Below are positions 41,202 to 54,467 of a stretch of DNA of 64,000 nt, piece after piece (position 1 is the stretch's first letter; each line of letters begins with the position of its first letter). Below the pieces are notes generated by a model, which saw nothing but the letters and a program-made list of their open reading frames with translations, did no database searches and was not told the origin of the DNA. Location of the stretch: assembly GCA_965223845.1 (NCBI GenBank), contig CBDCXR010000004.1, positions 4,576,001-4,640,000 on the forward strand, in the 5' to 3' direction. The translations under genes and the position numbers were made by a program. This DNA comes from Planctomycetota bacterium. GTDB lineage: Bacteria; Planctomycetota; UBA8108; SXIK01.

Positions 41202-42532
41202 CAAAACAAACCGAGGACGGGCTTCCCCTCGACGACTCGATGCGGCCGTCCGTTCATGTCGTGGACCACGGTCTCTGATGACATTCCGAGCGCGTGGTAG
41301 ATCGTCGCGACGAAGTCCGTGACGTAGACGGGGTCGTCGACCGGTTCCGCGCCATCCCGATCCGACGATCCCCACACCTGGCCGCCGCGCACCCCACCCC
41401 CAGCGAGGACCGTGCTGTAGACGTTTCCCCAGTGGTCGCGGCCCGCCTTCTTATTGATCTTCGGCGTCCGCCCGAACTCTCCCGTCCACGCAACGAGAGT
41501 TTCGTCGAGCAATCCGCGGTCGTCGAGATCTTCGAGGAGAGCGGAGAAGGCGCGGTCGAGGGTCGGAAGCAGTAGGTCCTTCATGACGGTGAAGTGCTTC
41601 TCGTGCGTGTCGAAGTTCTTCGTCGAGTGTAGGAACGTCCACGGCACGGTGACGAGTCCCACTCCGGCTTCGATGAGCCTCCTCGCGACGAGACAACTTC
41701 GGCCGAATTTGTTGTCGCCGTAGCGCTCGACCGTCGTGGCGTTCTCATCGTCGATGGCGAACGCGCTCCACGCATTCGACCGAGCCGAGAGGATCTCGAG
41801 CGCTTGACGTCTGAACCGCTGCGAATCGCGCACCGCATCGCCCGGTGGATCGATCGCTCGAGACTCGAGCGCCCGGAGAAGACGCGCTCGGTCGCGGCGC
41901 CGCTCGGCTCCGATCTCGGGCGACGGCTCGAACGAAGGGAGCAAGGTGCCCGGCGTCCAGGTCTCGTCGATCAGCATGAGCGGATCGTACTTCGGACCGA
42001 GATACCCCGCATGCTGGCCCGCCCACTGAAAGTTGTTCTGGTCACCGATCCGCACTGGGAGCTGGACCGCACCCGGGAGATCACCGCGGTCGCCGAGGAC
42101 CTGCCGGATCACCGAGCCGACCGACGGGGGATCCTTCCGGGACGCCTGCGGCTCACCGCGGGGGCGCGGTGCGTGCTTCAGCCCCGTGAGGTTGTAGTGA
42201 ACGCCGACGCCGTGGAGGGAGCTCTCGTGATGGACCGAACGAAGGATCGCGTAGCGATGCGCCGAGCGGGCGAGACGCGGAAGATGCTCGCAGATGCGAA
42301 TGCCGGGGACGGACGTCTCGATCGCCGCGAACTCGCCCCGCGCACCATCCGAAGCCTCCGGCTTCGGATCGAACGTCTCCTGCTGCGCCGGCCCGCCCGT
42401 CCCGTAGAGCAGGATGCAGCTCTTCGCACGGCCACCACCCGCGGCCGGGGCAGCTCGACTCTGCAGGACGCCCGGAAGATGGAGGCCGAGGGCACCGATC
42501 GTGCCGACTTGGAGAAACGTGCGGCGACGCAT
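41201..42532 (-). CDS. DUF1501 domain protein
   Basis: MRRRTFLQVG Tat leader, AKSCILL..GGPAQQETFDPKP, FDTH, GEFGRTPKIN..AGRDHW. Confidence 0.93.
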   Translation of the reverse strand: MRRRTFLQVGTIGALGLHLPGVLQSRAAPAAGGGRAKSCILLYGTGGPAQQETFDPKPEASDGARGEFAAIETSVPGIRICEHLPRLARSAHRYAILRSVHHESSLHGVGVHYNLTGLKHAPRPRGEPQASRKDPPSVGSVIRQVLGDRGDLPGAVQLPVRIGDQNNFQWAGQHAGYLGPKYDPLMLIDETWTPGTLLPSFEPSPEIGAERRRDRARLLRALESRAIDPPGDAVRDSQRFRRQALEILSARSNAWSAFAIDDENATTVERYGDNKFGRSCLVARRLIEAGVGLVTVPWTFLHSTKNFDTHEKHFTVMKDLLLPTLDRAFSALLEDLDDRGLLDETLVAWTGEFGRTPKINKKAGRDHWGNVYSTVLAGGGVRGGQVWGSSDRDGAEPVDDPVYVTDFVATIYHALGMSSETVVHDMNGRPHRVVEGKPVLGLF

Positions 42533-42706
42533 GGACGGCTCCGTCGAACGGCAGTTGACTCGCTCGCCATCCTTCCTAGCGCTTCCGTGCGGCGCAAGAG
42601 GAATCCTTTTCGGAGCCGGAGGGAGATCGGTATGCGTTCGACTGTTCTCGAACGTCCTCAAACGCGATAGGCTTGCGAGAGGCCTTCGAGCCGATCCGCG
42701 ACCGCG

Positions 42707-42722
42707 TGGAACATGGTTTGCA
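42707..42722 (+). promoter_or_regulatory. sigma54 (-24/-12) promoter TGGAACATGGTTTGCA
   Basis: Exact GG-N10-GC spacing with TTGCA at -12; 14 bp before the M50-CBS start. Confidence 0.7.
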
Positions 42723-42736
42723 CCGGATGATCTCGC

Positions 42737-43888
42737 ATGTTTCGTCACGCGATTCGTCTTCCCTTTCGCCTCCTCGGGATTCCGATCCGTCTCGATCTAT
42801 CGCTCGTCATCATCCTTCCGCTTCTCGCTTGGAGCATCGGCAGCAATCTCGAGCTCTACGCAAAGACGTTTAAGCTCGACATCCCGCTAGAGCCACTTCA
42901 GCGAGGCAGCGTCCCCTTTTATATCGGGCTGGGGGGCGCGGTCGGGCTCTTTGTCAGCGTCCTCATCCACGAGCTCGGGCACTCGGCAGTCGGTCGCTTC
43001 TACGGCCTCGAGATCAAGAGCATCACCCTCTGGCTTCTCGGCGGTGTCGCCGAGTTCAAGCAGATGCCGCGGCACGGAGGAATCGAAGCGATCATCGCGA
43101 TCGCTGGTCCGCTCACGAGCTACGCGCTCGGCGGAGTGTGCTGGGGTCTCCTCGCCACGACGCCGCCCGATGCGCCTGCGATGCAGTTCATCTTCACCTA
43201 CCTCATGTGGATGAACGTCGTCCTCGCCACGTTCAACCTGCTCCCCGCGCTGCCGCTCGACGGGGGGCGCGTACTCCGGTCGCTACTCGCTCTCCGGACG
43301 AGTTACCTGCGCGCCACCCTCTCGGCCGCGGCGATCAGCAAAGGCATCGCGTTCGCGCTCGGCCTCTTCGGATTTCTCTCGGGGAACCTCTTTCTCGTCC
43401 TCATCGCGTTCTTCGTCTACATGGCGGGCGCCGCCGAGGCGCAGATGGCGACAGCGGCGAGTCTTCTCCAAGGGATCCGGGTGCGAGACCTCATGACGAC
43501 AGAAGTCAAGACGATCGCCGCAAACACCACGGTTGCGGACCTCATCGAGCAGATGCTTTCCGACGGCCCGCTCGCGTACCCGGTCGTCGGAAACGCCGGA
43601 GACGTTCAGGGAATTGTCTCGCTGCGTGATCTTCAGAGAGATCGCGAACTCGCTGCGACGGACGGAGCGACTCCCGTCACGGCGATCATGAGGACGGAAT
43701 ACGAGTCGATCGCGCCGGACGCCGACGCCATGGATGCGTTCCGCCAGATCGCGCAGAACGAGATCGGAAGAATCCTCGTCGAGGACGAGCGCGGTGGTCT
43801 CGCGGGGATCATCAGCAAGACGGACCTCGTACGCGCCGTGCAGGTCCGGCTCGTCGGGCAGACGCTCGGTGGGTACGGGGGCTACTGA
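42737..43888 (+). CDS. Site-2 protease (M50) with CBS pair
   Basis: SVLIHELGH, AIAGP, FNLLPALPLDGGR; two C-terminal CBS domains. Confidence 0.94.
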   Translation: MFRHAIRLPFRLLGIPIRLDLSLVIILPLLAWSIGSNLELYAKTFKLDIPLEPLQRGSVPFYIGLGGAVGLFVSVLIHELGHSAVGRFYGLEIKSITLWLLGGVAEFKQMPRHGGIEAIIAIAGPLTSYALGGVCWGLLATTPPDAPAMQFIFTYLMWMNVVLATFNLLPALPLDGGRVLRSLLALRTSYLRATLSAAAISKGIAFALGLFGFLSGNLFLVLIAFFVYMAGAAEAQMATAASLLQGIRVRDLMTTEVKTIAANTTVADLIEQMLSDGPLAYPVVGNAGDVQGIVSLRDLQRDRELAATDGATPVTAIMRTEYESIAPDADAMDAFRQIAQNEIGRILVEDERGGLAGIISKTDLVRAVQVRLVGQTLGGYGGY

Positions 43889-46335
43889 GCGACCGCGCCG
43901 GAGTTTCGAGGTCGGCGTCGTAACCTCTTCTCCACTTCGAGTACGCGGAGCGTCGTTTTCAGCACGGTGTCGGGGTTGAGACTCATCGAGTCGATCGCCT
44001 GCTCGACGAGGAACTCGGCGATCTCCGGGTAGTCGGACGGCGCCTGCCCGCAGATCCCGCAGTGGCGACCACTTCGCCGGGCGCCTTCGATCGCTTGGCG
44101 AATGAGCGCGAGCACGCCCGGATCGCGCTCGTCGAAGTCGAACGCAACTTGCTCGGAATCGCGATCGACGCCGAGAGTGAGCTGCGTGAGGTCGTTCGAT
44201 CCGATCGAGAAACCGTCGAAGATCTCGGCGAACGCGTCGACCTGGACGACATTGTTGGGGATCTCGCACATCACATAGACTTCGAGACCGTTTTCTCCCC
44301 GGCGGAGACCGTTTCGGGCGAGCTCCTCGAGTACCTTCTTACCTTCGTCGACCCGCCGGCAGAAGGGAACCATGAGCTTCACGTTCCTGAGCCCCATGTC
44401 GTCGCGGACGCGGCGGAGCGCCGCGCATTCGAGCGCGAAGCCTTCGGAATACGCCGGGTGTGCGTACCGTGACGCGCCGCGGAATCCGATCATAGGGTTG
44501 CTTTCGACCGGCTCGAAAGCGCTTCCGCCGAGAAGCCCGGCGTACTCGTTCGTTTTGAAGTCGGAAAGGCGCACGACAACTGGACGCGGGTAGAACGCGG
44601 CCGCGATCATGCCGACGCCCTCGGACAACTTCTCGACGAAAAACTCGGCCGGCGTAGTGTAGAGCCGAGTCAGCTCCTCGACCGCTTCGCGTTCAGCGGG
44701 GTCGAGGACGCGCTCGGGATGGACGAGCGCCATCGGATGCGCGCGGATCGATTCCGAGATGATGAACTCGACGCGAGCGAGCCCGACGCCGTCCGAAGGG
44801 AGGCGACTCGTACTGAAGGCGAGCGCGGGATTCCCGAGATTGACGAGGATTTCCGTCGCGGGTCGCTCGAGACCCGCGAGGTCGATCTGCTCGACGTCGA
44901 ACGGCACTTCACCCGAATAGACCTTACCGACGTCGCCTTCCGCACACGAAACGGTCACTATGTCGCCGGGGCGCATGCGCTCGGTCGCGTCCTCGGCACC
45001 GACGACCGCGGGGATGCCGAGCTCGCGCGCAACGATCGCGGCGTGACACGTACGCCCCCCGCGGTTCGTCACGATCGCCGCCGCGCGCTGGAGGACCGGC
45101 TCCCAGTCGGGAGTCGTCGCGTCTGCGACGAGAACGTCCCCCGTCTCGAACTGATGGAGATTCTGCGCGTTCGCGATGGCTCGCACGGGTCCGGTCGCGA
45201 CTTTCTCGCCGACGGCGCGGCCCGTCACGATGACGGGAGCCGAACCGCGTACGACGTACTCTTCGAGAACCGCCGCGTCTCGCTGCGACACGACCGTCTC
45301 GGGACGGGCCTGGACGAGGTAGAGTTTTCCGTCGATGCCGTCCTTCGCCCACTCCATGTCCATCGGTTGATCGCGGTCCGCTTTCTCCGAGTAGTGCTCC
45401 TCGACGCGAATCGCGTAGTCCGCGAGCGCGAGAACCTCGTCGTCGCGAATCGAGTACTGTTCGCGCTCGTACCGAGATGTCGGCACGTTTCGGGTCGGCT
45501 CGCGTGTGCGTCCGTGCGAGTAGATCATTTTGATCTTCTTCTCGCCGAGGACACGGCGAAGGACGCAGCGGTAACCCTCGCGGAACGTCGGCTTGTGGAC
45601 GTAGAACTCATCGGGGTCGACGCTTCCCTGAACGACGTTCTCGCCGAGACCGTACGCGCTCGTGATCAACACCGCGTCCCGGTAGCCCGATTCGGTGTCG
45701 ATCGAGAACATGACGCCGCTCGATGCAAGATCCGAGCGAACCATGCGCTGGACTCCGATCGAGAGCGCGACGTCGAAGTGGTCGAAGCCCTGATCGATGC
45801 GGTAGTGAATCGCGCGATCGGTGAAGAGGCTCGCGAAACATCGGCGGCACGCGTCGAGGAGCGCGGTGTCGCCGCGCACGTTGAGGTAGGTGTCCTGTTG
45901 GCCGGCGAAGCTCGCGCTCGGAAGATCTTCCGCGGTTGCCGAGCTCCGCACGGCCACGCTGAGGTCGGAGCCGTAGGTCTCCTCCAGTCGATGGTACGCG
46001 CGGAGAATGTCCCGGCGGATTTCTTCGGGGAGCTCCACGGCGAGAACGATCTCTCGCGCGGCCCTCCCGCGTTCGGCGAGATCCTGGACGTCGCTCGGGT
46101 CGAGGCCTGCGAGCGCATCACGGAGGCGCGGAAGCGCGCGCGCTCGCTCGAGGGCGCATCGGTACGCCTCCGCCGTCACCGCGAACCCGTCCGGGACGAG
46201 AACGCCGCGGGGAGTGAGCTCGCGGTACATCTCGCCGAGCGAAGCGTTCTTCCCGCCCACCAGCGAGACGTCGTCGATCGTGAGCTCTTCGAAGCGGCGG
46301 GTGAACATCCTTCCGGTCGCACTCGATCCAGGCAT
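43882..46335 (-). CDS. ppsA: Phosphoenolpyruvate synthase
   Basis: VGGKNASLGEM, AVRSSATAEDLP.ASFAGQQ, phospho-His GGRTCHAAIVARELG, GFSIGSNDLTQL, GICGQAPSD. Confidence 0.97.
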   Translation of the reverse strand: MPGSSATGRMFTRRFEELTIDDVSLVGGKNASLGEMYRELTPRGVLVPDGFAVTAEAYRCALERARALPRLRDALAGLDPSDVQDLAERGRAAREIVLAVELPEEIRRDILRAYHRLEETYGSDLSVAVRSSATAEDLPSASFAGQQDTYLNVRGDTALLDACRRCFASLFTDRAIHYRIDQGFDHFDVALSIGVQRMVRSDLASSGVMFSIDTESGYRDAVLITSAYGLGENVVQGSVDPDEFYVHKPTFREGYRCVLRRVLGEKKIKMIYSHGRTREPTRNVPTSRYEREQYSIRDDEVLALADYAIRVEEHYSEKADRDQPMDMEWAKDGIDGKLYLVQARPETVVSQRDAAVLEEYVVRGSAPVIVTGRAVGEKVATGPVRAIANAQNLHQFETGDVLVADATTPDWEPVLQRAAAIVTNRGGRTCHAAIVARELGIPAVVGAEDATERMRPGDIVTVSCAEGDVGKVYSGEVPFDVEQIDLAGLERPATEILVNLGNPALAFSTSRLPSDGVGLARVEFIISESIRAHPMALVHPERVLDPAEREAVEELTRLYTTPAEFFVEKLSEGVGMIAAAFYPRPVVVRLSDFKTNEYAGLLGGSAFEPVESNPMIGFRGASRYAHPAYSEGFALECAALRRVRDDMGLRNVKLMVPFCRRVDEGKKVLEELARNGLRRGENGLEVYVMCEIPNNVVQVDAFAEIFDGFSIGSNDLTQLTLGVDRDSEQVAFDFDERDPGVLALIRQAIEGARRSGRHCGICGQAPSDYPEIAEFLVEQAIDSMSLNPDTVLKTTLRVLEVEKRLRRRPRNSGAVAQ

Positions 46336-46347
46336 CGATCGAAACCG

Positions 46348-46809
46348 TTACGGATACGGATAGTAGAGGTCGTCGTGTCGCTTGATCTTGTAGCGATCTT
46401 GGAGGAATGCGACGACGTCGATGAGCTGCTGGACGGTCATCGCCTGATTGAAGTTCGGCATCTTCGATTTGCCGTCCTCCGAGACTTTCTCCTTCGGCTC
46501 GCCCCTCTTGAGAGTGTGCGAAGGATTGATGACGGCCGTCACAAGCTCACCGTAGGTTTTGATTCGGCTCACTTCGCCACCGAGAGAAACCTTGGATTCA
46601 ACACTTCCGTCGACGGCGGGAAGCTCGCGACCGAACACCGTGTGGCAACTGTGACAGTTGAGGGCGACGAATGTCGCCTCTCCCGTCGAGACGTCACCGT
46701 CGGGAAGTCGAAATCCTCGCGCCGACTTTTTCCCGCTGCACCCGGAAGCGAATGCGAACGTGATCGTCACTCCCGCGCAGAGGACGAAGAAAACGCGTGC
46801 GAACTTCAT
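46348..46809 (-). CDS. Monoheme c-type cytochrome (probable lipoprotein)
   Basis: FASGC lipobox-like motif, CHSCH, YGELVTAVINPSH, distal Met in SKMPNFN. Confidence 0.87.
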   Translation of the reverse strand: MKFARVFFVLCAGVTITFAFASGCSGKKSARGFRLPDGDVSTGEATFVALNCHSCHTVFGRELPAVDGSVESKVSLGGEVSRIKTYGELVTAVINPSHTLKRGEPKEKVSEDGKSKMPNFNQAMTVQQLIDVVAFLQDRYKIKRHDDLYYPYP

Positions 46810-47315
46810 GAGACCAGCTCCTTCTCAGGCTCGATCGCGACCGATTCGCAGGTGCACTCCCGTTCGGGGCACCGACAGATCGCGACGAGCGTGTCCGAAA
46901 CTTCCTCGGCGGAAACGCTCGGCCTCCGCGCCCCCCGATCGTGATCTGCTCGGAGAACGAGATCGCGAAGCGAGAGAATTCCGACGAGGTGGCCATCGCG
47001 GCTCGTGACGGGAAGGCGGCGAACTTGCGCCTCCTTCATCGTCTGTTCGGCGTCTTGAAGACTCTCCTCGGGGTGGCAACACGAGAGCTGCGTCGCCATG
47101 ACTGACCAGACGGGGATTTCGTCGAGACGCTTCCCTTGGGTGTACGCCGCCATACAGATATCGCGATCGGTGAGCATGCCGACGAGCTCCGTCCCGTCCC
47201 GGCAGACCGGTACGCACCCACAGTCGCGCTCCCACAGAATCTGGGCGGCACAGTTGAGTGAATCCTCCGGGTGACATGAGGAGACATCGCGCGTCATAAG
47301 TTCGGAAACTTGCAT
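46806..47315 (-). CDS. CBS domain protein
   Basis: MQVSELMTRDV...DCGCVPV...GMLTDRDI...QVRRLPV...GILSLRDL; GGAGG RBS; ATGA overlap with the cytochrome. Confidence 0.92.
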   Translation of the reverse strand: MQVSELMTRDVSSCHPEDSLNCAAQILWERDCGCVPVCRDGTELVGMLTDRDICMAAYTQGKRLDEIPVWSVMATQLSCCHPEESLQDAEQTMKEAQVRRLPVTSRDGHLVGILSLRDLVLRADHDRGARRPSVSAEEVSDTLVAICRCPERECTCESVAIEPEKELVS

Positions 47316-47374
47316 CGGTCCTCCCTCCATGTGTATCGCAGCGCCCCACGCGGCTGCGGCGGGAGAAACGAGAG

Positions 47375-47390
47375 AGCAAAGGGTGTTCCA
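47375..47390 (-). promoter_or_regulatory. sigma54 promoter TGGAACACCCTTTGCT
   Basis: GG-N10-GC with TTGCT, about 60 bp upstream of the CBS-cytochrome-ppsA operon. Confidence 0.75.
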
Positions 47391-47495
47391 TCGACGCCTG
47401 TCCGCGGTGATCGACGAATCGAACCGCGAGGATCTCATTCACTGCGTCTCGCGACGACGCGAAGAGCCACGAAAAATCCCCCTGCACTCGAGGAA

Positions 47496-48104
47496 TTACC
47501 CGATGGGCGGCCCAGAACGGAGCCCGGAACGCGGCACAAATCGCGGTACCCGGCTCGCGTACTCCCGGTACGCGTCCCCGAAACGAGCACGAAGCTCGCG
47601 CTCTTCGAGCTTCGCGATGACGAAAACGGCGGGGACGCTCAGCGCGAAGGCTACGTAGGCTGCGGCGTAGTTGCTGAAAAGAGAGAACGCGAGGACCACG
47701 ACGATGAGCTGCACGTATCGCGGGTGGCGGATTCGCGAATAGATGCCGGTCGTGACGAGCTCCGACGGGTTCGCTCGCTGCTCGAGCTCGGTCGAGCCGA
47801 CGAGCGTCCGGAGGGGTATCTCGCGCGCGATCGCGCGACGAAGCAGCACGGAGACGATCAGAAGGAGCGCCGAGACGACGATCAAGACCGGGTTCGCGCC
47901 GAACTCGAGCGCGAGAAACACGTCCCGGGCGAAGTACACGATCGCCCCGACCGTCGCGACGAATGCGAGGTGAACGGCCAGCGCCAGCGAGCGGTTCACT
48001 CTCCGCCAAAAGACGATCCCGCCGTGCATCGAGAGCCAGTACACGAAAACCGCGGGGACGGCCGCGACGACGACGTAAGCGATCCAGAATCTTGCGGTGT
48101 CCAA
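47496..48104 (-). CDS. Isoprenylcysteine carboxylmethyltransferase/PEMT family membrane protein
   Basis: ELVTTGIYSRIRHPRY...EERELRARFGDAYREYASRVPRFVP. Confidence 0.9.
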   Translation of the reverse strand: MDTARFWIAYVVVAAVPAVFVYWLSMHGGIVFWRRVNRSLALAVHLAFVATVGAIVYFARDVFLALEFGANPVLIVVSALLLIVSVLLRRAIAREIPLRTLVGSTELEQRANPSELVTTGIYSRIRHPRYVQLIVVVLAFSLFSNYAAAYVAFALSVPAVFVIAKLEERELRARFGDAYREYASRVPRFVPRSGLRSGPPIG

Positions 48105-48107
48105 GCT

Positions 48108-49333
48108 CAGCTCCGTAGAAGCAGCGTCATTACCGTCGATTCCCGAGGAGAATTTCGGCTTGCGAATCGCGTTCTCCCGACAGAGCTCTGGTCAGACGTC
48201 TGTTCCGCGTCGATGCGTCGTCGGGAATCGATCCCGACCCAGCGGAGCGAGACGGCGTTCCGGTCCGCGTCGAGTGCGCACCTCGTTCCCGCGGACAGAG
48301 TCGACGATGCTCTTCGCCGGGACTTGCGACCGGCCACGCCCCGCCTCATCCTACTCATGCCCGGCTTGTCGCTTCGAACCCCGATGCTGCCTTGCTTCTA
48401 CCTTAGGGGGTCGTGGTGCAGCCTCGGCGTATTCTTCCGGACGCGACGTATCTCATCACTCGGCGCTGCAGTGAACGGCGGTTTCTCCTTCGCCCCGAAG
48501 AGAAAGTGAACCGTGCCGTGCTCTACTGCCTCGCGTACGCGGCGGCAGAAACGGGTGTGGAGGTGCACGCGTTCGCGACTTTGTCGAATCACTACCATTT
48601 GGTGGTTACCGATCCGGCGGGGCGGATCCCGCGCTTTCTGCACCGACTCAATTCCCTCCTCGCGCGCTGCGTGAACTCTATGCGAGCGCGATTCGGCAGC
48701 CTGTTCGAGCCTTCGGGGCCGAGCTGCGTGCGGGCGATCGAGTCGGGGGACGTGGTCGGGCAGCTCGTCTACACCTACTGCAACCCGGTGTCGTCGGGGC
48801 TCGTTCCCGATGCCAAGGAGTGGCCGGGCGTGCGGAGCGACCCGAGCGACTTCGGGTCGACGCTCTACGCGGAGAGGCCCGAGTGGTTCTTTTCGGAGTT
48901 CATGCCGGACGAGGTTCCGCTCGAGATCACGCCGCCCCCTTGCTTTGCCGAGCGCGATCTCGGGGAGTTGATCGCGGACCTCGAGGCGCAAGTCGCCGAG
49001 CGCAATGCGAAGTGCAAAGCGGAGATCGAGAGTTCGGGAACAGGATTCCTCGGGATGCGGCGGGCGCGAAATCAGAGCCCCACCGACTCACCCCAGAGCT
49101 ACGAGAAGAAATGGAAGCTATCGCCAACCGTCCAGGCGAAGCGGCCTGCCGCGCGGATCAAAGAGATCCGAGAGCTCGTCACCTTTCGAAAACGCTATCG
49201 CGTGGCACTCGAGCAGTATCGCGACGGAGTGAACGACGTTCCCTTTCCGGCCGGAACCTACTGGATGCGGGTCTTTCACCGCCAGAAGTGTGAGCCGCTG
49301 ATCTCTGGAGCGGTACCGGCAGCTCCGTAGAAG
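48108..49333. repeat. 14-bp exact direct repeat CAGCTCCGTAGAAG at 48108-48121 and 49320-49333, bracketing the transposase
   Basis: Both copies read directly from the sequence. Confidence 0.7.
48413..49330 (+). mobile_element. IS200-like/REP-associated tyrosine (Y1 HUH) transposase
   Basis: YLITRRC, HUH motif SNHYHLV, catalytic YTYCNPV..GLV...W; lies antisense within a minus-strand gene cluster. Confidence 0.88.
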
Positions 49334-49551
49334 GCTCGGGCGAGTTCGCTCCGGTCTCGAACGCACCAAGACCGGGTGCTTTGGCGGGGAACGAATGTCT
49401 GCCGGCCGACGGTCTGAATTGAGAATTGGTGCGCGGCGTGAGCCTTCTGTTGATTCGGCGGACGGCGGACGGGATCCCTGTCCCCCGGCCGTCGCGAAAC
49501 GCCCCAATACAATCTTTTATGATTACTCTTTTCTGGATGAACCCCGTTAGT

Positions 49552-52344
49552 TCAAATGGGAACCCGGTTCGGGGCTGTCCTGTCCGGGCTCGGAAACCAA
49601 ACCCGCACCACCGTCTTTCCCAGCTCGATGACGGTCACCGGAACGAACGCGAGCGCACCGACCCACCCCCACTCGCCCGCCCGTAGCGTGCTTACCTCAA
49701 ACACCGATTGCGCGACCGGAATCACGATCACACCGACCTGGAGCAGCGTCGAGATCGCGATCGCACCCCAGAGGTGCAGGTTCGAAGTCCACCCGAGCTC
49801 GCCCAGGGTTTCGGTTCGACTGCGACAGCTGACGGCGAAGAGGAGCTGCGAGAACGCGATGACGCAAAACGCCGCGGTTCGCGCGCGCGGTAGATTCGCC
49901 GCGTCGCCGCCGTAGATGATCCCGAAGCCGACCGCCGCCGTCCCTCCGAGGAGAAGACCGTGCGCGAGCATCGCTCGTCCGCGTCGCCCGTCGATCACGG
50001 GGGCCTTCGGCGGTCGAGGTGGCCGGCGCATGACGTCCCTCTCCGGCGGCTCCATCGCGAGCGCGAGCGCCGGGAGACTGTCCGTCACGAGATTGATCCA
50101 GAGGATCTGAATCGCGACGAGCGGGATCGGCCAGCCGATGAGCGTCGCAAGAAACATGAAGGCAACCTCACCCGCATTGCACGCGAGGAGGTAGTGAACG
50201 AACTTCTGAATGTTGTCGAAGATCCCGCGCCCTTCTTCGACCGCGGCGATGATCGAGGCGAAGTTGTCGTCGGTGAGCACCATGTCCGACGCTCCCTTGG
50301 TCACGTCGGTACCGGTGATTCCCATCGCCACGCCGATGTCGGCGCTCCTGACGGCCGGGGCGTCGTTCACGCCATCCCCGGTCATCGCGACCACTTGGCC
50401 GCGGGCGCGCCAGGCGCCCACGACGCGAAGCTTGTGCTCGGGTGAGACTCGGGCGTACACCCCGATCGTTTCGACGGCGTCCTTCAGCTCCTCGTCGGAG
50501 AGACGATCGAGCTCGGCGCCGGTGACGACACGGTCGCCTTCGCGCAAGATTCGCAGCTCGCTCGCAATCGCACGCGCCGTCTGCGGGTGGTCTCCCGTGA
50601 TCATAATCGGGCGGATTCCCGCGGTTCCGCACTCCTCGACCGCGCGCTTCACCTCTTCCCGCGGGGGATCGATCATTCCCGCGAGGCCGACGAACGTGAG
50701 ATCACGCTCCTCGACCTCTCGTACACGCTCGAGAGCGACGTCGCGGAGCGCGAAACCGAGAACGCGAAGCGAGCGCGAAGCCATTTCCGACGCCTCCGCG
50801 AGGATCGCGCGACGCCGCTCGTCGTCGAGTGGCTCGATCCGCCCGCCGCGATGTTCGCTCGTACACCGCGCGACCACGGCTTCGACCGCGCCCTTCGTAT
50901 AGAGAACGGGGCGTCCGGGCTCTTCTTCGACCACGACCGACATCGCGCGACGCTCTGAGTCGAACGGAATCTCGAAGAGAGTCGGACGACGCACTTGCGC
51001 GGCCTCGAGTCGCGCCTTAAGCGCCGCGACGACGAGCGCCCCCTCGGTGGGGTCGCCGATCACCTGCCAGGTCTTTGCCCCCGCGGTCGGATGGACGCTC
51101 GCATTGTTGCAGCGAGCGGCGACCGTGAGGAGGCGCGCGAGGTCACCTGCATCGCCGAGTGTCACTTCCGACTCGCCGGCCTCGTCGCTTCTTGAGCTCG
51201 AGTCCTCCGCGCGTCGAAGGAACTTTCCCGATGGCGCGTAGCCGACTCCCGTCACCGAAAACGCGGAGTCCGGAGTCCGGATCTCCCGGACGGTCATCTC
51301 GTTCTTCGTGAGTGTCCCCGTCTTGTCGGAGCAGATCACCGTCACCGAGCCGAGCGTCTCGACGCTCGGAAGTCGCCGAACGAGCGCGTTTCGTTCGACC
51401 ATGCGGCGGAGTCCTAGAGCGAGGGCGATCGTGACGACCGCCGGCAATCCCTCCGGTACGGCTGCGACCGCGAGGCTCACCGAGAGGAGGAAGACTTCGA
51501 AGATGTCGCCTCCGCGCAGTACCTGGAGCGTAAAGATCACCGCGACAAGTGCGAGACAGACGACGACGAGCACGCGACCCAGCTGACGCAGCCGAATTTG
51601 AAGCGGTGTCGGCTCGGGCTCGTGCCTCCGCAACATCCCGGCGATCCGCCCGAGCTCCGTCTCCATCCCGGTCGCGGTGACGATGGCTCGCGCCTTGCCC
51701 GCCGCCGCCACCGTCCCGAGATAGACCATGTTCACGCGGTCGCCGAGCGCGGTGTCGACGGCGAGCTCGGCGTCGGCAGCCTTCGACTCGGCGACGGACT
51801 CGCCCGTGAGCGAAGCCTCCTGCACGCGAAGATCGTAGGCTTCAACGAGGCGCGCGTCCGCGGGCACCGCGTCGCCCGCTTCGATCTGAATGACGTCCCC
51901 GCCGACGAGGTCGCGCGCCGGCACGGTCTCGAGGATTCCGCCGCGGAACACGTGCGCGAGCGGCGCTGAGAGCTCTCGGAGCGCGCTCAGCGAGCGCTCC
52001 GCGCGCTCTTCTTGAAGAAAACCGAGAATGCCGTTGAGGAGCACGATCGCGAGGATCGCCGCCGTGTCGGCCCAGTCGCCGATCACTCCCGAGATGATGG
52101 CCGCGGCGATGAGGATCCAGACGACGAGATCGGAGAACTGACGGAAGAAACGCCGCCACGTCGGAATCGGCGGTGCTTCCGGAATTTCGTTCGGCCCGTC
52201 GCGCTCGCGACGCTCGATCGCGACCGTGCCAGATAGACCCTCCGCGGGGTCGACACCCGCTGCGCGCGCAACGTCCGTCGCGGGTCGAGTGTAAGCTGCG
52301 TCCTCCTCGGTGCGCGCGCCGATCTTCGGAGCATGCTCCGTCAT
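49552..52344 (-). CDS. Cation-transporting P-type ATPase (P2A, Ca2+-type)
   Basis: [43 protein letters not shown]; true start is ATG 52344, overlapping the antiporter stop (ATGA). Confidence 0.95.
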
Positions 52345-53348
52345 CGCGGCCCCTCGCCCAGCCAGTAGAGAACGACGAGCGCCGCTACGACCAGTCCGAT
52401 GACGAGAAGCGCGTCCGGCTCGACGAAACGCTTCCGTGCTTCGATGTGGTAGAGCTGCCCGAGAACAGCGACCGCAGTGATGAGAATGGCCGCGAGACAA
52501 GTGACGATCTGCACCGGCGACGCCGCGCCGAGAAGAGGCGCCCCCGACGAGAGCTCGACGACGGCGAGGAGCACGATATTGAACGAGTTGCTTCCGAAGA
52601 TGTTCCCGAGCGCGAGATCGAACGCGCCTAGGCGAACCGCCGTGATCGTCGTCACGAGCTCGGGAAGCGACGTCGCGGCTGCGACGAATGTCGATCCGAC
52701 GAACGTCTCTCCGAGACCGGAAGTCTCGGCGAGTTCCCCGGCAGACGACGCCAGAAACGGTCCGGCGACGAGGATGACTCCGGCCGTCGCGATATACCCG
52801 GCGACGGCCTGCGCGAGCGTGAGGCGCGGCGGAGGAGCCGATGGATCTGGCTCCGTCCGACTCGCATCCGTTCCTTGCTGATCGCAGTAGACCATGCGCA
52901 CTCCAAACGCGTACGCGGCGAGGATCCCGACGCTCCCCGCGCCGATCGGACCGATGTATCCGCGAAGCCCGATCGCGATCGCGCCGGCGGCGATGCTCAT
53001 GAGCGCGATGCTCACGACCCCCGAGAGCGCGTGCGCGGCCGATATCCGCGAGAGAAGACGGCCGCGGGAATGATGCGTGAGGTCGAGCACGCCCAAAATG
53101 AGAAGGTTGAACAGGTTGCTCCCGACGAGGCCGCCGACCGCGACATCGATGAACCCCTGCCGCGCCGCGGCGATATCGACGGACAACTCGGGAAGCGATG
53201 TCGCCCCCGCGAGGAACACGCTTCCTACCCAGAGCCGCCCGAACCCCGTCCGGCGCGCGATTCCGTCGGCGAACCAGGTGAGCGCGGCGCCGCACACGAT
53301 GATGGCGATGGCGAAGAGACCGAACTCGACCAGGACTCCAAGCTGCAC
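52341..53348 (-). CDS. Sodium:calcium antiporter (CaCA/YrbG family)
   Basis: Two alpha repeats: ATSLPEL...GSNLFN and ATSLPEL...GNIFGSNSFN. Confidence 0.92.
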   Translation of the reverse strand: MQLGVLVEFGLFAIAIIVCGAALTWFADGIARRTGFGRLWVGSVFLAGATSLPELSVDIAAARQGFIDVAVGGLVGSNLFNLLILGVLDLTHHSRGRLLSRISAAHALSGVVSIALMSIAAGAIAIGLRGYIGPIGAGSVGILAAYAFGVRMVYCDQQGTDASRTEPDPSAPPPRLTLAQAVAGYIATAGVILVAGPFLASSAGELAETSGLGETFVGSTFVAAATSLPELVTTITAVRLGAFDLALGNIFGSNSFNIVLLAVVELSSGAPLLGAASPVQIVTCLAAILITAVAVLGQLYHIEARKRFVEPDALLVIGLVVAALVVLYWLGEGPR

Positions 53349-53419
53349 CGCGATCGTCCCCTTCCGCGTCGCACCGTCACTTCCCGCGCGAGCATCCGAA
53401 TCACGCGCGGAGGTCGCAG

Positions 53420-53435
53420 CGCACATCCTATTCCA
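53420..53435 (-). promoter_or_regulatory. Probable sigma54 promoter TGGAATAGGATGTGCG
   Basis: GG-N10-GC with the same TGGAA variant, about 72 bp upstream of the antiporter start; weaker -12 element. Confidence 0.5.
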
Positions 53436-53615
53436 CGGACGGCGATTCGGATTACGGCCACGCGAACGAATCCAGGGCGGCGCGGGAACTACCGCACACG
53501 CTATGGAATATTACCCAGCCGCTCGCCGGCCGAACTCGGCCCGAGGACGCCCCATCCAGCGAGGGACGTGCGTCCACGCCACGATAACAACGTTCACCGA
53601 TCTCGTCAGGAACGA

Positions 53616-53631
53616 GGGAACGCCCTTTGCA
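53616..53631 (+). promoter_or_regulatory. sigma54 promoter GGGAACGCCCTTTGCA
   Basis: GG-N10-GC with TTGCA, about 97 bp upstream of hsp20; 13/16 identical to the site at 47375-47390. Confidence 0.7.
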
Positions 53632-53727
53632 GTTACTCTCTGCGACCGGCGCGTCGCCAACGATCGGGGCGGCGCGGAGTGGTCCTGGATGTTTAGAGCG
53701 GCCTTTCAGTGAAGGAGGTCAAAGGCC

Positions 53728-54207
53728 ATGAAACTCACCGATCTGATGCCCTGGCGCAGCCGCGAGCTCGGAGCTCGGCCCGCTAACGGAGAGTCCCTCG
53801 CGTCGTTTCGCCGAGAGATGAACCGACTCTTCGACGATTTCCTCGCCGATCCTTGGGGAACGGAGGCCGGAAAGACCTTCGCTCCGAAGCTCGACATCAC
53901 CGAAACCGAGGGAACGATCGAGGTGAAGGCGGAGATTCCCGGCGTGGATGAGAACGACGTCGAGCTTCTCCTCGACGACGCGTCGCTCACGATCCGCGGC
54001 GAAAAAAAGGAAGAGAAAGAGACCGAAGACGAAGGCTGGCACGTCCGCGAGTCGTCGTACGGAAAGTTCGAGCGCGTCGTGCCGCTCCCGTGCGGCGTCG
54101 ATTCGGGGAAGGCCAAGGCTAGACACAAGAAGGGCGTGTTGACCATCACGCTGCCGAAATCGGAGGACGCGAAGAAGGCCCGAAAGCGCATTCCAGTGAG
54201 CGGTTAG
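53728..54207 (+). CDS. Hsp20/alpha-crystallin small heat shock protein
   Basis: PKLDITET...AEIPGV...LTIRGEK...YGKFERVVPLP...GVLTITLPK...IPV; AGGAGG RBS. Confidence 0.96.
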   Translation: MKLTDLMPWRSRELGARPANGESLASFRREMNRLFDDFLADPWGTEAGKTFAPKLDITETEGTIEVKAEIPGVDENDVELLLDDASLTIRGEKKEEKETEDEGWHVRESSYGKFERVVPLPCGVDSGKAKARHKKGVLTITLPKSEDAKKARKRIPVSG

Positions 54208-54467
54208 TCCATCTATGCAGCGTGGGGACTCGCGGCCGCGGCTCGCACTCGAGCTAGCCGCGACCCTAAGGGTTTGGGCGGGCTGGTCGACGAGGAACGG
54301 GCGAGGCGTTCACGGCGTCCTCGCCCGGTTTTCGTTCTGACGAGTGCGCGGACGCATCACGCGACGAGGCGAATCACTTGGGGCGTCGGATGGACTGGGG
54401 TACGATCGGACGCTCGAGACTTGACGACCGACCGCCGCTGCGCGGCGGTTCTCCGATCTGATCACCA

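Follow-up and report, generated by a model that had tools for sequence, protein, structure and literature searches.

The gene cluster and its four candidate promoters

The 64,000-nt stretch of DNA analysed here (the window), which comes from a planctomycete genome of 7.9 Mb (65% GC, 91.7% complete), carries between positions 42,707 and 54,207 a cluster of genes for an M50 metalloprotease with a CBS pair (M50-CBS), a stand-alone CBS-pair protein, a c-type cytochrome, phosphoenolpyruvate (PEP) synthase, an antiporter of the Na+/Ca2+-exchanger family, a P-type ATPase and a small heat-shock protein (Hsp20). The genes form four putative transcription units, each preceded on its own strand by a site of the -24/-12 type used by sigma-54 (RpoN). 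We argue that the four units are each read from a sigma-54 promoter, as one part of a lineage-wide habit of placing stress and proteostasis genes under sigma-54, and we give this reading a probability of about 0.65.

Gene identities rest on Pfam and NCBIfam profiles, on our own gene calls and on sequence matches in the PDB. They bear out the families that a first-pass annotation of this DNA had named for the four units, and the four 16-mers that it had proposed as promoters are present at the positions and on the strands it gave. In the following list, strict denotes the motif GGNAC-N5-TTGC, and the bit scores of the sites come from a genome-derived matrix seeded with sites that include sites 1, 2 and 4.

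42707-42722, plus strand: sigma-54-type -24/-12 site 1, TGGAACATGGTTTGCA, before M50-CBS; strict match; 17.3 bits
42737-43888, plus strand: M50 metalloprotease, site-2-protease-like, with C-terminal CBS pair (Pfam Peptidase_M50, CBS)
47390-47375, minus strand: sigma-54-type site 2, TGGAACACCCTTTGCT, 59 nt before the CBS start; strict match; 18.6 bits
46806-47315, minus strand: stand-alone CBS-pair protein, cysteine-rich, first gene of unit 2 (Pfam CBS)
46348-46809, minus strand: small monohaem c-type cytochrome with lipoprotein-type signal (..FASGC) and CHSCH motif (Pfam Cytochrom_C, 27.3 bits; signal and motif by eye from the translation)
43882-46308, minus strand: PEP synthase (pyruvate, water dikinase), last gene of unit 2 (Pfam PPDK_N, PEP-utilizers, PEP-utilizers_C)
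53435-53420, minus strand: sigma-54-type site 3, TGGAATAGGATGTGCG, about 71 nt before the antiporter GTG at 53348; weaker -12, GTGC
52341-53348, minus strand: Na+/Ca2+-exchanger family (CaCA) membrane protein, first gene of unit 3 (Pfam Na_Ca_ex; own gene caller)
49552-52344, minus strand: P2-type (Ca2+-ATPase-like) P-type ATPase, second gene of unit 3 (Pfam cation-ATPase domains)
53616-53631, plus strand: sigma-54-type site 4, GGGAACGCCCTTTGCA, 96 nt before hsp20; strict match; 18.6 bits
53728-54207, plus strand: Hsp20/alpha-crystallin small heat-shock protein (Pfam HSP20, 80.4 bits)

The spacing between the GG and GC doublets is exactly 10 nt in all four sites. Measured against TGGCAC-N5-TTGC[A/T], the main departure of sites 1, 2 and 4 is an A in place of C at -23; in site 3, position -22 is T and the -12 element is GTGC. 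Within the window, the loose pattern TGG-N10-GC is uninformative (150 matches against 112 expected), and GGAAY-N6-TGC occurs 8 times against 3.3 expected, a count reached in 3 of 100 shuffles. The pattern GGAAC-N5-TTGC occurs 3 times, at sites 1, 2 and 4, against 0.33 expected, and none of the 100 shuffles reached this count. Scoring by matrix, which the first-pass annotation had put forward for all four sites, leaves site 3 below 8 bits.

Neighbouring genes overlap by 4 nt in two places, CBS with cytochrome and antiporter with ATPase, which makes four transcription units reasonable. The longest open reading frames of the CBS gene and the antiporter extend across sites 2 and 3. The CBS gene nevertheless likely starts at ATG 47315, which has a GGAGG just upstream. 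For the antiporter, GTG 53348 is the likely start and not ATG 53426, since the orthologue in the relative G003 (a member of the same family, and the nearest relative examined that has orthologues) has its start at the corresponding position, with the upstream ATG in another reading frame. No earlier start is open to M50-CBS, given an in-frame TGA at 42728; its N-terminus aligns with the G003 orthologue from Met1 (54% identity).

Three of the predicted promoters are near consensus (GGAAC-N5-TTGC[A/T]), and the antiporter/ATPase promoter would have a weaker -12 element. Transcription would be expected to start about 12 nt after each GC, giving leaders of about 50 nt for the CBS unit, 60 nt for the antiporter unit and 85 nt for hsp20, with an almost leaderless message for M50-CBS. 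If these are sigma-54 promoters, each unit would therefore need an ATP-driven enhancer-binding protein, encoded elsewhere in the genome.

Sigma-54-type sites and sigma-54 machinery in the genome

To judge the motif over the whole genome, genes were called crudely by codon-usage log-odds (5096 genes, 88% coding), and each intergenic site was oriented relative to the adjacent gene. The loose pattern GG-N10-GC is worthless in this 65% GC genome, because its density is nearly the same toward genes (8.1 per kb) and away from them (7.7 per kb). GGAAC-N5-TTGC, by contrast, has 19 intergenic copies, all of which point toward the adjacent gene, and its density is 18-fold higher in intergenic than in coding DNA (10.6 vs 0.57 per Mb-strand). 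In the strict set, GGNAC-N5-TTGC, 55 copies point toward genes and 8 away, the strand that could be searched amounting to 1.09 Mb and 0.73 Mb, respectively. A gene for an enhancer-binding protein is found no more than 5 kb from eight of these 55 sites (random mean 1.9; 8 reached in 0 of 1000 draws). The wiring to sigma-54 that had been proposed for the cluster is upheld by the orientation of the motif and by the recurrence of sites at orthologous and homologous genes.

The factor that such wiring presupposes is encoded twice, by complete rpoN genes that each carry AID, CBD and DBD domains (473 and 557 aa, 42% identical), and there are 36 matches to Sigma54_activat, 30 of them at E<=1.7e-30, corresponding to about 30 enhancer-binding proteins. 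The rpoN paralogues lie at:

C4:7042305-7045775: rpoN
C4:638335-641811: rpoN

Two Sigma54_DBD matches are also found in four of five relatives searched (the fifth genome is 80% complete), and the duplication of rpoN thus looks old in this order.

Most of the GGAAC-N5-TTGC sites (16 of 19) lie outside the cluster, where they precede dnaK, the prkA-yeaH-spoVR operon, several dockerin proteins, a giant enhancer-binding protein gene, and CHAT, FHA, TonB-like, ProRS and other genes. Further strict sites precede a REC gene with groES-groEL, clpB, fructose-1,6-bisphosphatase and an adenylate kinase-like gene; groEL2-groEL3 are found downstream of TGGCGTGCGGTTTGCA, and lon and tandem universal stress protein (USP) genes downstream of TGGCAC-N5-GTGC sites. 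Because sites precede dnaK, groESL, groEL2-3, clpB, lon and USP genes of the same genome, the cluster, on the sequence evidence, appears as part of a broad sigma-54 network for stress and proteostasis. RpoH scores 177 bits against a family cut-off of 323, and HrcA was not found in this genome, which is 91.7% complete.

Two of the chaperone loci include a gene for an enhancer-binding protein. At dnaK (C4:7737975-7742553), genes for a small histidine kinase and a 491-aa REC-type enhancer-binding protein come first, then a sigma-54 site and dnaK itself; the groESL locus (C4:3432848-3437496) consists of an enhancer-binding protein (565 aa, with a 235-aa N-terminus that has no domain assignment), a sigma-54 site, a REC-only gene and groES-groEL. 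These two enhancer-binding proteins are candidates for dedicated chaperone activators.

Three side observations concern the wider set of sites. First, both committed gluconeogenic enzymes are preceded by sigma-54-type sites, fructose-1,6-bisphosphatase (C4:3784922-3786036) and PEP synthase (43882-46308 in the window). Second, several dockerin/cohesin-tagged secreted proteins, together with a 1590-aa enhancer-binding protein that has AAA_16 and TPR domains (C4:4513831-4522503 and 4768176-4779020), have GGAAC-, GGCAC- or GGTAC-type sites, two of them back to back at 4517539/4517549. Third, a T before TTGC (TTTGC) is seen by eye in 11 of 19 GGAAC sites and in 5 of 36 sites with other -24 variants (GGCAC 2/23, GGTAC 2/10, GGGAC 1/3). 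It could compensate for a weaker -24, or the pairing of TTTGC with GGAAC could reflect two promoter classes for the two RpoN paralogues.

The GGAA(C/T) variant, which had been pointed out as common to the four sites, does not hold as a signature of the cluster: besides the sites elsewhere in the genome, the orthologous hsp20 promoter in G003 reads GGCAC. This GGCAC also leaves GGAAC unsupported as the mark of a regulon that would belong to a second sigma-54 paralogue.

Conservation in relatives and metagenomic contigs

In G003, whose orthologues share 54% (M50-CBS), 56% (hsp20) and 47-61% (ATPase) identity with the proteins described here, hsp20 is divergent from the antiporter, which is followed by a 272-aa ATPase fragment and then by ppsA, with sigma-54-type sites on both sides. 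The site before hsp20, GCGGCACATGTTTTGCT, is of the GGCAC type and orthologous to site 4; the one before the antiporter, CGTGGAACGAAATGTGCGCT, lines up with site 3 (by eye, 15 identities in 19 positions). An ATG lies inside this block in G003, out of frame with the antiporter and followed by a stop after 30 codons, so that the conservation of the block is not coding; site 3 is therefore rescued despite its background-level sequence. M50-CBS of G003 has GGGTATGTCGTTTGCT about 78 nt upstream. The ATPase fragment next to the G003 antiporter (L054:9508-10326) is N-terminal, with ppsA directly after it and a full-length copy elsewhere in the genome; it looks as if a deletion had taken out the remainder of the ATPase gene, along with those genes that separate ATPase and ppsA in the window.

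Other relatives show the same promoter type at related genes. In G009, a site precedes CBS-hsp20-lon; in G007, one 12.7-kb contig has sites before CBS and pyruvate:ferredoxin oxidoreductase (PFOR), before tandem USP genes and before a cyclic-nucleotide (cNMP)-binding gene; and in G001, a site precedes three tandem hsp20 genes.

A wider sample was provided by 80 metagenomic loci with a CBS homologue (39-55% identity), of which 41 are at least 5 kb long and 71 have at least 220 nt upstream of the homologue. Among these 71, a strict site is present upstream in 15 on the sense strand, compared to 2 on the antisense strand. By tblastn, the 80 loci contain Hsp20 in 9 cases, USP in 8, the ATPase in 7, GroEL in 3, Lon and PFOR in 2 each, and PpsA in 1.

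As a separate observation, a 20.5-kb metagenome contig (L088, 55% GC) has groEL and CBS-hsp20 in divergent orientation, each with a sigma-54-type site, and further on a second divergent pair of sites, followed by an M50-CBS homologue and a P-type ATPase; it is the same module in a more distant organism.

Control of the four units

The predicted sigma-54 wiring is well supported for the three units behind sites 1, 2 and 4, and reasonably supported for the antiporter/ATPase unit behind site 3. In this lineage, protein-quality-control and general-stress genes (dnaK, groESL, clpB, lon, hsp20, USP, CBS) would habitually be placed under sigma-54, and in the cluster the same control would reach further, to a membrane protease gated by CBS domains, to the export of Ca2+, to a cytochrome of the periplasm and to PEP synthesis. 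The units would then depend on RpoN for their expression and might be served by one activator or by several. Low oxygen is not specifically indicated by any feature found; since sigma-54 sites precede the main chaperone genes here, heat or proteotoxic stress is at least as likely as low oxygen to be the trigger.

Several observations weigh against this reading. The GC of site 1 lies 15 nt before ATG 42737, the shortest site-to-start distance among the 55 strict sites, which leaves about 4 nt between the expected transcription start and the ATG and makes leaderless translation necessary. Site 3 is at background by its sequence: GGAAY-N5-GTGC points toward genes in 5 cases and away in 6, genome-wide, and the low matrix score of the site agrees with this. 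Both the orientation test and the matrix rest on crude gene calls of our own, and the matrix was seeded with sites 1, 2 and 4 among others. Neither of the other two hsp20 genes in this genome is preceded by a strict site, and none of the 36 Sigma54_activat matches falls within the window. Conservation of the motifs, which the first-pass annotation had looked to, holds for hsp20, the antiporter and M50-CBS of G003, but the cluster is not kept whole there: M50-CBS lies about 112 kb from the hsp20/antiporter/ppsA group, among other neighbours, and the CBS gene is part of a groESL operon, with TGGCGCCACGTTTGCT upstream of CBS-hsp20-groES-groEL. At loci of M50-CBS homologues in relatives, a sense-strand site is found in 1 of 12 cases, namely in G003, and in none of the 11 more distant ones. 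Cytochrome and antiporter were found by tblastn in none of the 80 metagenomic CBS loci, 41 of them at least 5 kb long. Nor did a shared activator site come to light: a search for 9-mers shared between the upstream regions gave two short matches at chance level and no convincing common element, and an inverted-repeat search gave one weak palindrome and none that is shared. The candidate GGATTTT(T), seen by eye upstream of several relatives' sites, accompanies 1 of 55 strict sites here and is rejected for this genome; most of its 16 intergenic copies lie right after gene ends, like the T-runs of terminators.

A sigma-54 site alone does not tell which activator fires the promoter. The neighbourhood of CBS homologues was also searched for a candidate, and enhancer-binding protein genes occur near the CBS homologue in 5 of 80 metagenomic cases and, in G003, at one locus; none emerged as a candidate. 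One lead comes from two AT-rich sequences:

53505-53515: AT-rich near-palindrome GGAATATTACC, halfway between the divergent sites 3 and 4; candidate site for an activator or for bending
47492-47500: shorter related copy GGAATTACC, some 100 nt upstream of site 2 and overlapping the TAA with which the methyltransferase gene ends

The pattern GGTAAT(0-2 A/T)TCC has only these 2 intergenic copies in the genome, at 75-112 nt from sites 2, 3 and 4, the latter two of which, being divergent, share 180 bp; near site 1 there is only a loose GGAATCC. For sites 2, 3 and 4 the distance would suit an enhancer-binding protein, whose sites are expected some 70-150 nt upstream. The element was found post hoc and its copies differ in length by 2 nt, so we treat it as a lead only.

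The lead bears on the stronger proposal that the four units form one co-regulated regulon for low oxygen or energy limitation, a dormancy-like response run by a single enhancer-binding protein and a sigma-54 counterpart of actinobacterial DosR, which we consider on balance unlikely. The rarity and position of the AT-rich pattern speak for it, as do the four families held in common with the DevR/DosR regulon (M50-CBS/Rv2625c, CBS/Rv2626c, ATPase/CtpF, alpha-crystallin/HspX), the USP and PFOR genes that the module of G007 also contains, the frequency of Hsp20, USP and ATPase near the metagenomic CBS homologues, and the sites at PpsA and fructose-1,6-bisphosphatase, which point to a metabolic switch. 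However, neither a sensor for oxygen, nitric oxide or redox state nor an enhancer-binding protein has a link with the cluster; the AT-rich element has the weaknesses given above, down to the overlap of one copy with a stop codon; a sigma-54 site carries no regulon information, and GGAAC also precedes unrelated genes; and, among the companions of the module in relatives, heat-shock genes (groESL, lon) are no less frequent than USP or PFOR and make up the majority when hsp20 is included.

Distinctly unlikely, in our view, is that a DosR-like set was assembled independently in Planctomycetota under sigma-54, comprising the CBS-pair protein, a CBS-gated M50 protease, a Ca2+-type P-ATPase, alpha-crystallin, USPs and an enzyme of the pyruvate node (PpsA here, PFOR in a relative), and that one dedicated enhancer-binding protein fires it at low energy or oxygen through a GGTAAT(AT)TCC-like element. 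Such a set would be a convergent "quiescence kit", with a shared core open to testing outside a pathogen.

That the motifs are chance matches or sites of another factor, such as an extracytoplasmic function (ECF) sigma factor, with ordinary promoters being used instead, is very unlikely: GGAAC is the usual -35 core of ECF-type promoters, site 1 lies improbably near its start codon, site 3 has background frequency, and a consensus scan of 42400-54400 that returned no sigma-70-like promoters says little, as planctomycete housekeeping promoters are poorly known; but TTGC follows at a fixed 5-nt spacing in 19 of 19 sites, which is the geometry of sigma-54 and not the 16-17 nt spacer of ECF promoters, the A, C and T variants at -23 share the same orientation bias, the sites cluster near enhancer-binding protein genes, and orthologous promoters switch between GGAAC and GGCAC. 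The four units being read from sigma-54 promoters, as part of the lineage-wide stress habit, remains the reading we prefer.

Properties of the encoded proteins and other features of the region

In the PDB, M50-CBS matches MJ0392 (E 1.1e-34) and a site-2 protease CBS domain. PEP synthase passes two NCBIfam equivalog cut-offs (NF005057 with 1145 bits against 598, TIGR01418 with 1114 against 740); a second possible start of its gene lies at 46335. The best PDB matches of the ATPase are the Listeria Ca2+-ATPase (E ~1e-185), SPCA1 and SERCA, and it scores below both NCBIfam Ca2+-ATPase equivalogs (PMR1-type 716 bits, cut-off 798; SERCA-type 661 bits, cut-off 703); Ca2+ is the probable transported ion. 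The CBS-pair protein (46806-47315) contains 12 cysteines, counted from the translation, including those of the C-terminal tail CRCPERECTC, and its homologues align with residues 1 to about 147 only; the tail may be a metal or redox module.

The division into four units made by the first-pass annotation is reasonable, but two more genes without sigma-54-type sites of their own lie inside the cluster, together with a weak hairpin that would separate one of them from unit 2:

47496-48104, minus strand: PEMT/ICMT-like membrane methyltransferase (Pfam PEMT, ICMT; NCBIfam isoprenylcysteine methyltransferase below cut-off)
47477-47494, minus strand: terminator-like hairpin with T-run, weak, after the methyltransferase gene (5-pair stem; consensus scan only)
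48413-49330, plus strand: REP-associated tyrosine-transposase-like gene (Pfam Y1_Tnp weak; NCBIfam REP_Tyr_transpos 38 bits, below the cut-off of 80)

GC content is even across the region (0.62-0.68), so that the genes form a cluster and not a compositional island, and horizontal transfer is rejected on the same ground. An RNA thermometer was looked for in the hsp20 leader, which has no match in Rfam at E<=1 other than a spurious miRNA and folds no better than shuffled sequences (z -0.16). About 215 nt upstream of site 1, at 42491-42505, a perfect palindrome, GGCACCGATCGTGCC, has GG-N10-GC on both strands; it is located inside or at the start of a divergent DUF1501 gene.

Comparison with known systems

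Sigma-54 control of stress genes in Planctomycetia is, as a general phenomenon, already predicted in print (PMC12316311, PLoS One 2025), judging from the passages of that study considered here. The classes predicted there include the COGs of GroEL, IbpA, GroES, GrpE, DnaJ and DnaK, ATP-dependent proteases, UspA and the CBS COG0517 (PMC12316311). Phylum, promoter type and gene classes are the same as here, where the pattern is seen in this genome and in G001, G003, G007 and G009, and the prediction is computational in both cases. The COGs of P-type ATPase, PpsA, Ca/Na antiporter and M50 protease had no match in the passages of PMC12316311 searched; the ATPase, PpsA, antiporter and M50 units and their clustered arrangement may thus be additions to that prediction.

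In the literature searched, we found no experimentally mapped sigma-54 promoter in planctomycetes. These bacteria have many sigma-54 activators, and four well-defined candidate promoters that lie close together here, including one divergent pair, would allow a test of the printed prediction, namely that stress and chaperone genes are driven by sigma-54 and not by RpoH or HrcA.

Elsewhere, sigma-54 stress promoters are known at ibpB and the psp operon of Escherichia coli and, with HsfA/HsfB and lonD, in Myxococcus xanthus. The likeness lies in a gene for a small heat-shock protein or protease that is under sigma-54 and a dedicated enhancer-binding protein; here, genes for enhancer-binding proteins adjoin dnaK and groESL. 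Those promoters, however, are single ones beside an RpoH regulon, whereas here sites of this type precede most chaperone genes, with no RpoH above the cut-off and no HrcA found in the genome.

The closest parallel in gene content is the DosR/DevR regulon of Mycobacterium tuberculosis. In the rows of Table 1 considered here, the operon of Rv2626c appears together with Rv2625c and Rv2624c, and ctpF and the gene for alpha-crystallin are listed too (PMC3177182). The family parallel drawn in the first-pass annotation is correct in this respect: a CBS pair (Rv2626c, which is among the PDB matches of the CBS-pair protein here, E 1.5e-13, 54 bits), an M50-CBS protein (Rv2625c, in the same operon), a P-type ATPase (ctpF) and a small heat-shock protein of the alpha-crystallin type are common to both. 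USP is not in this cluster, but it is in the module of relatives. Nothing in the Table 1 rows of PMC3177182 considered corresponds to PpsA, cytochrome c or the antiporter. No control of the DosR type was found here, neither a Dev box nor a DosR homologue having been searched for, and the promoters are of another kind: M. tuberculosis uses a NarL-type response regulator, tandem Dev boxes and sigma-70-type promoters, as opposed to sigma-54 -24/-12 sites here. The parallel with DosR is one of gene families only. The recurring company of CBS-pair protein, Hsp20, USP and Ca-type ATPase across phyla and regulators suggests that these proteins work jointly in non-growing cells.

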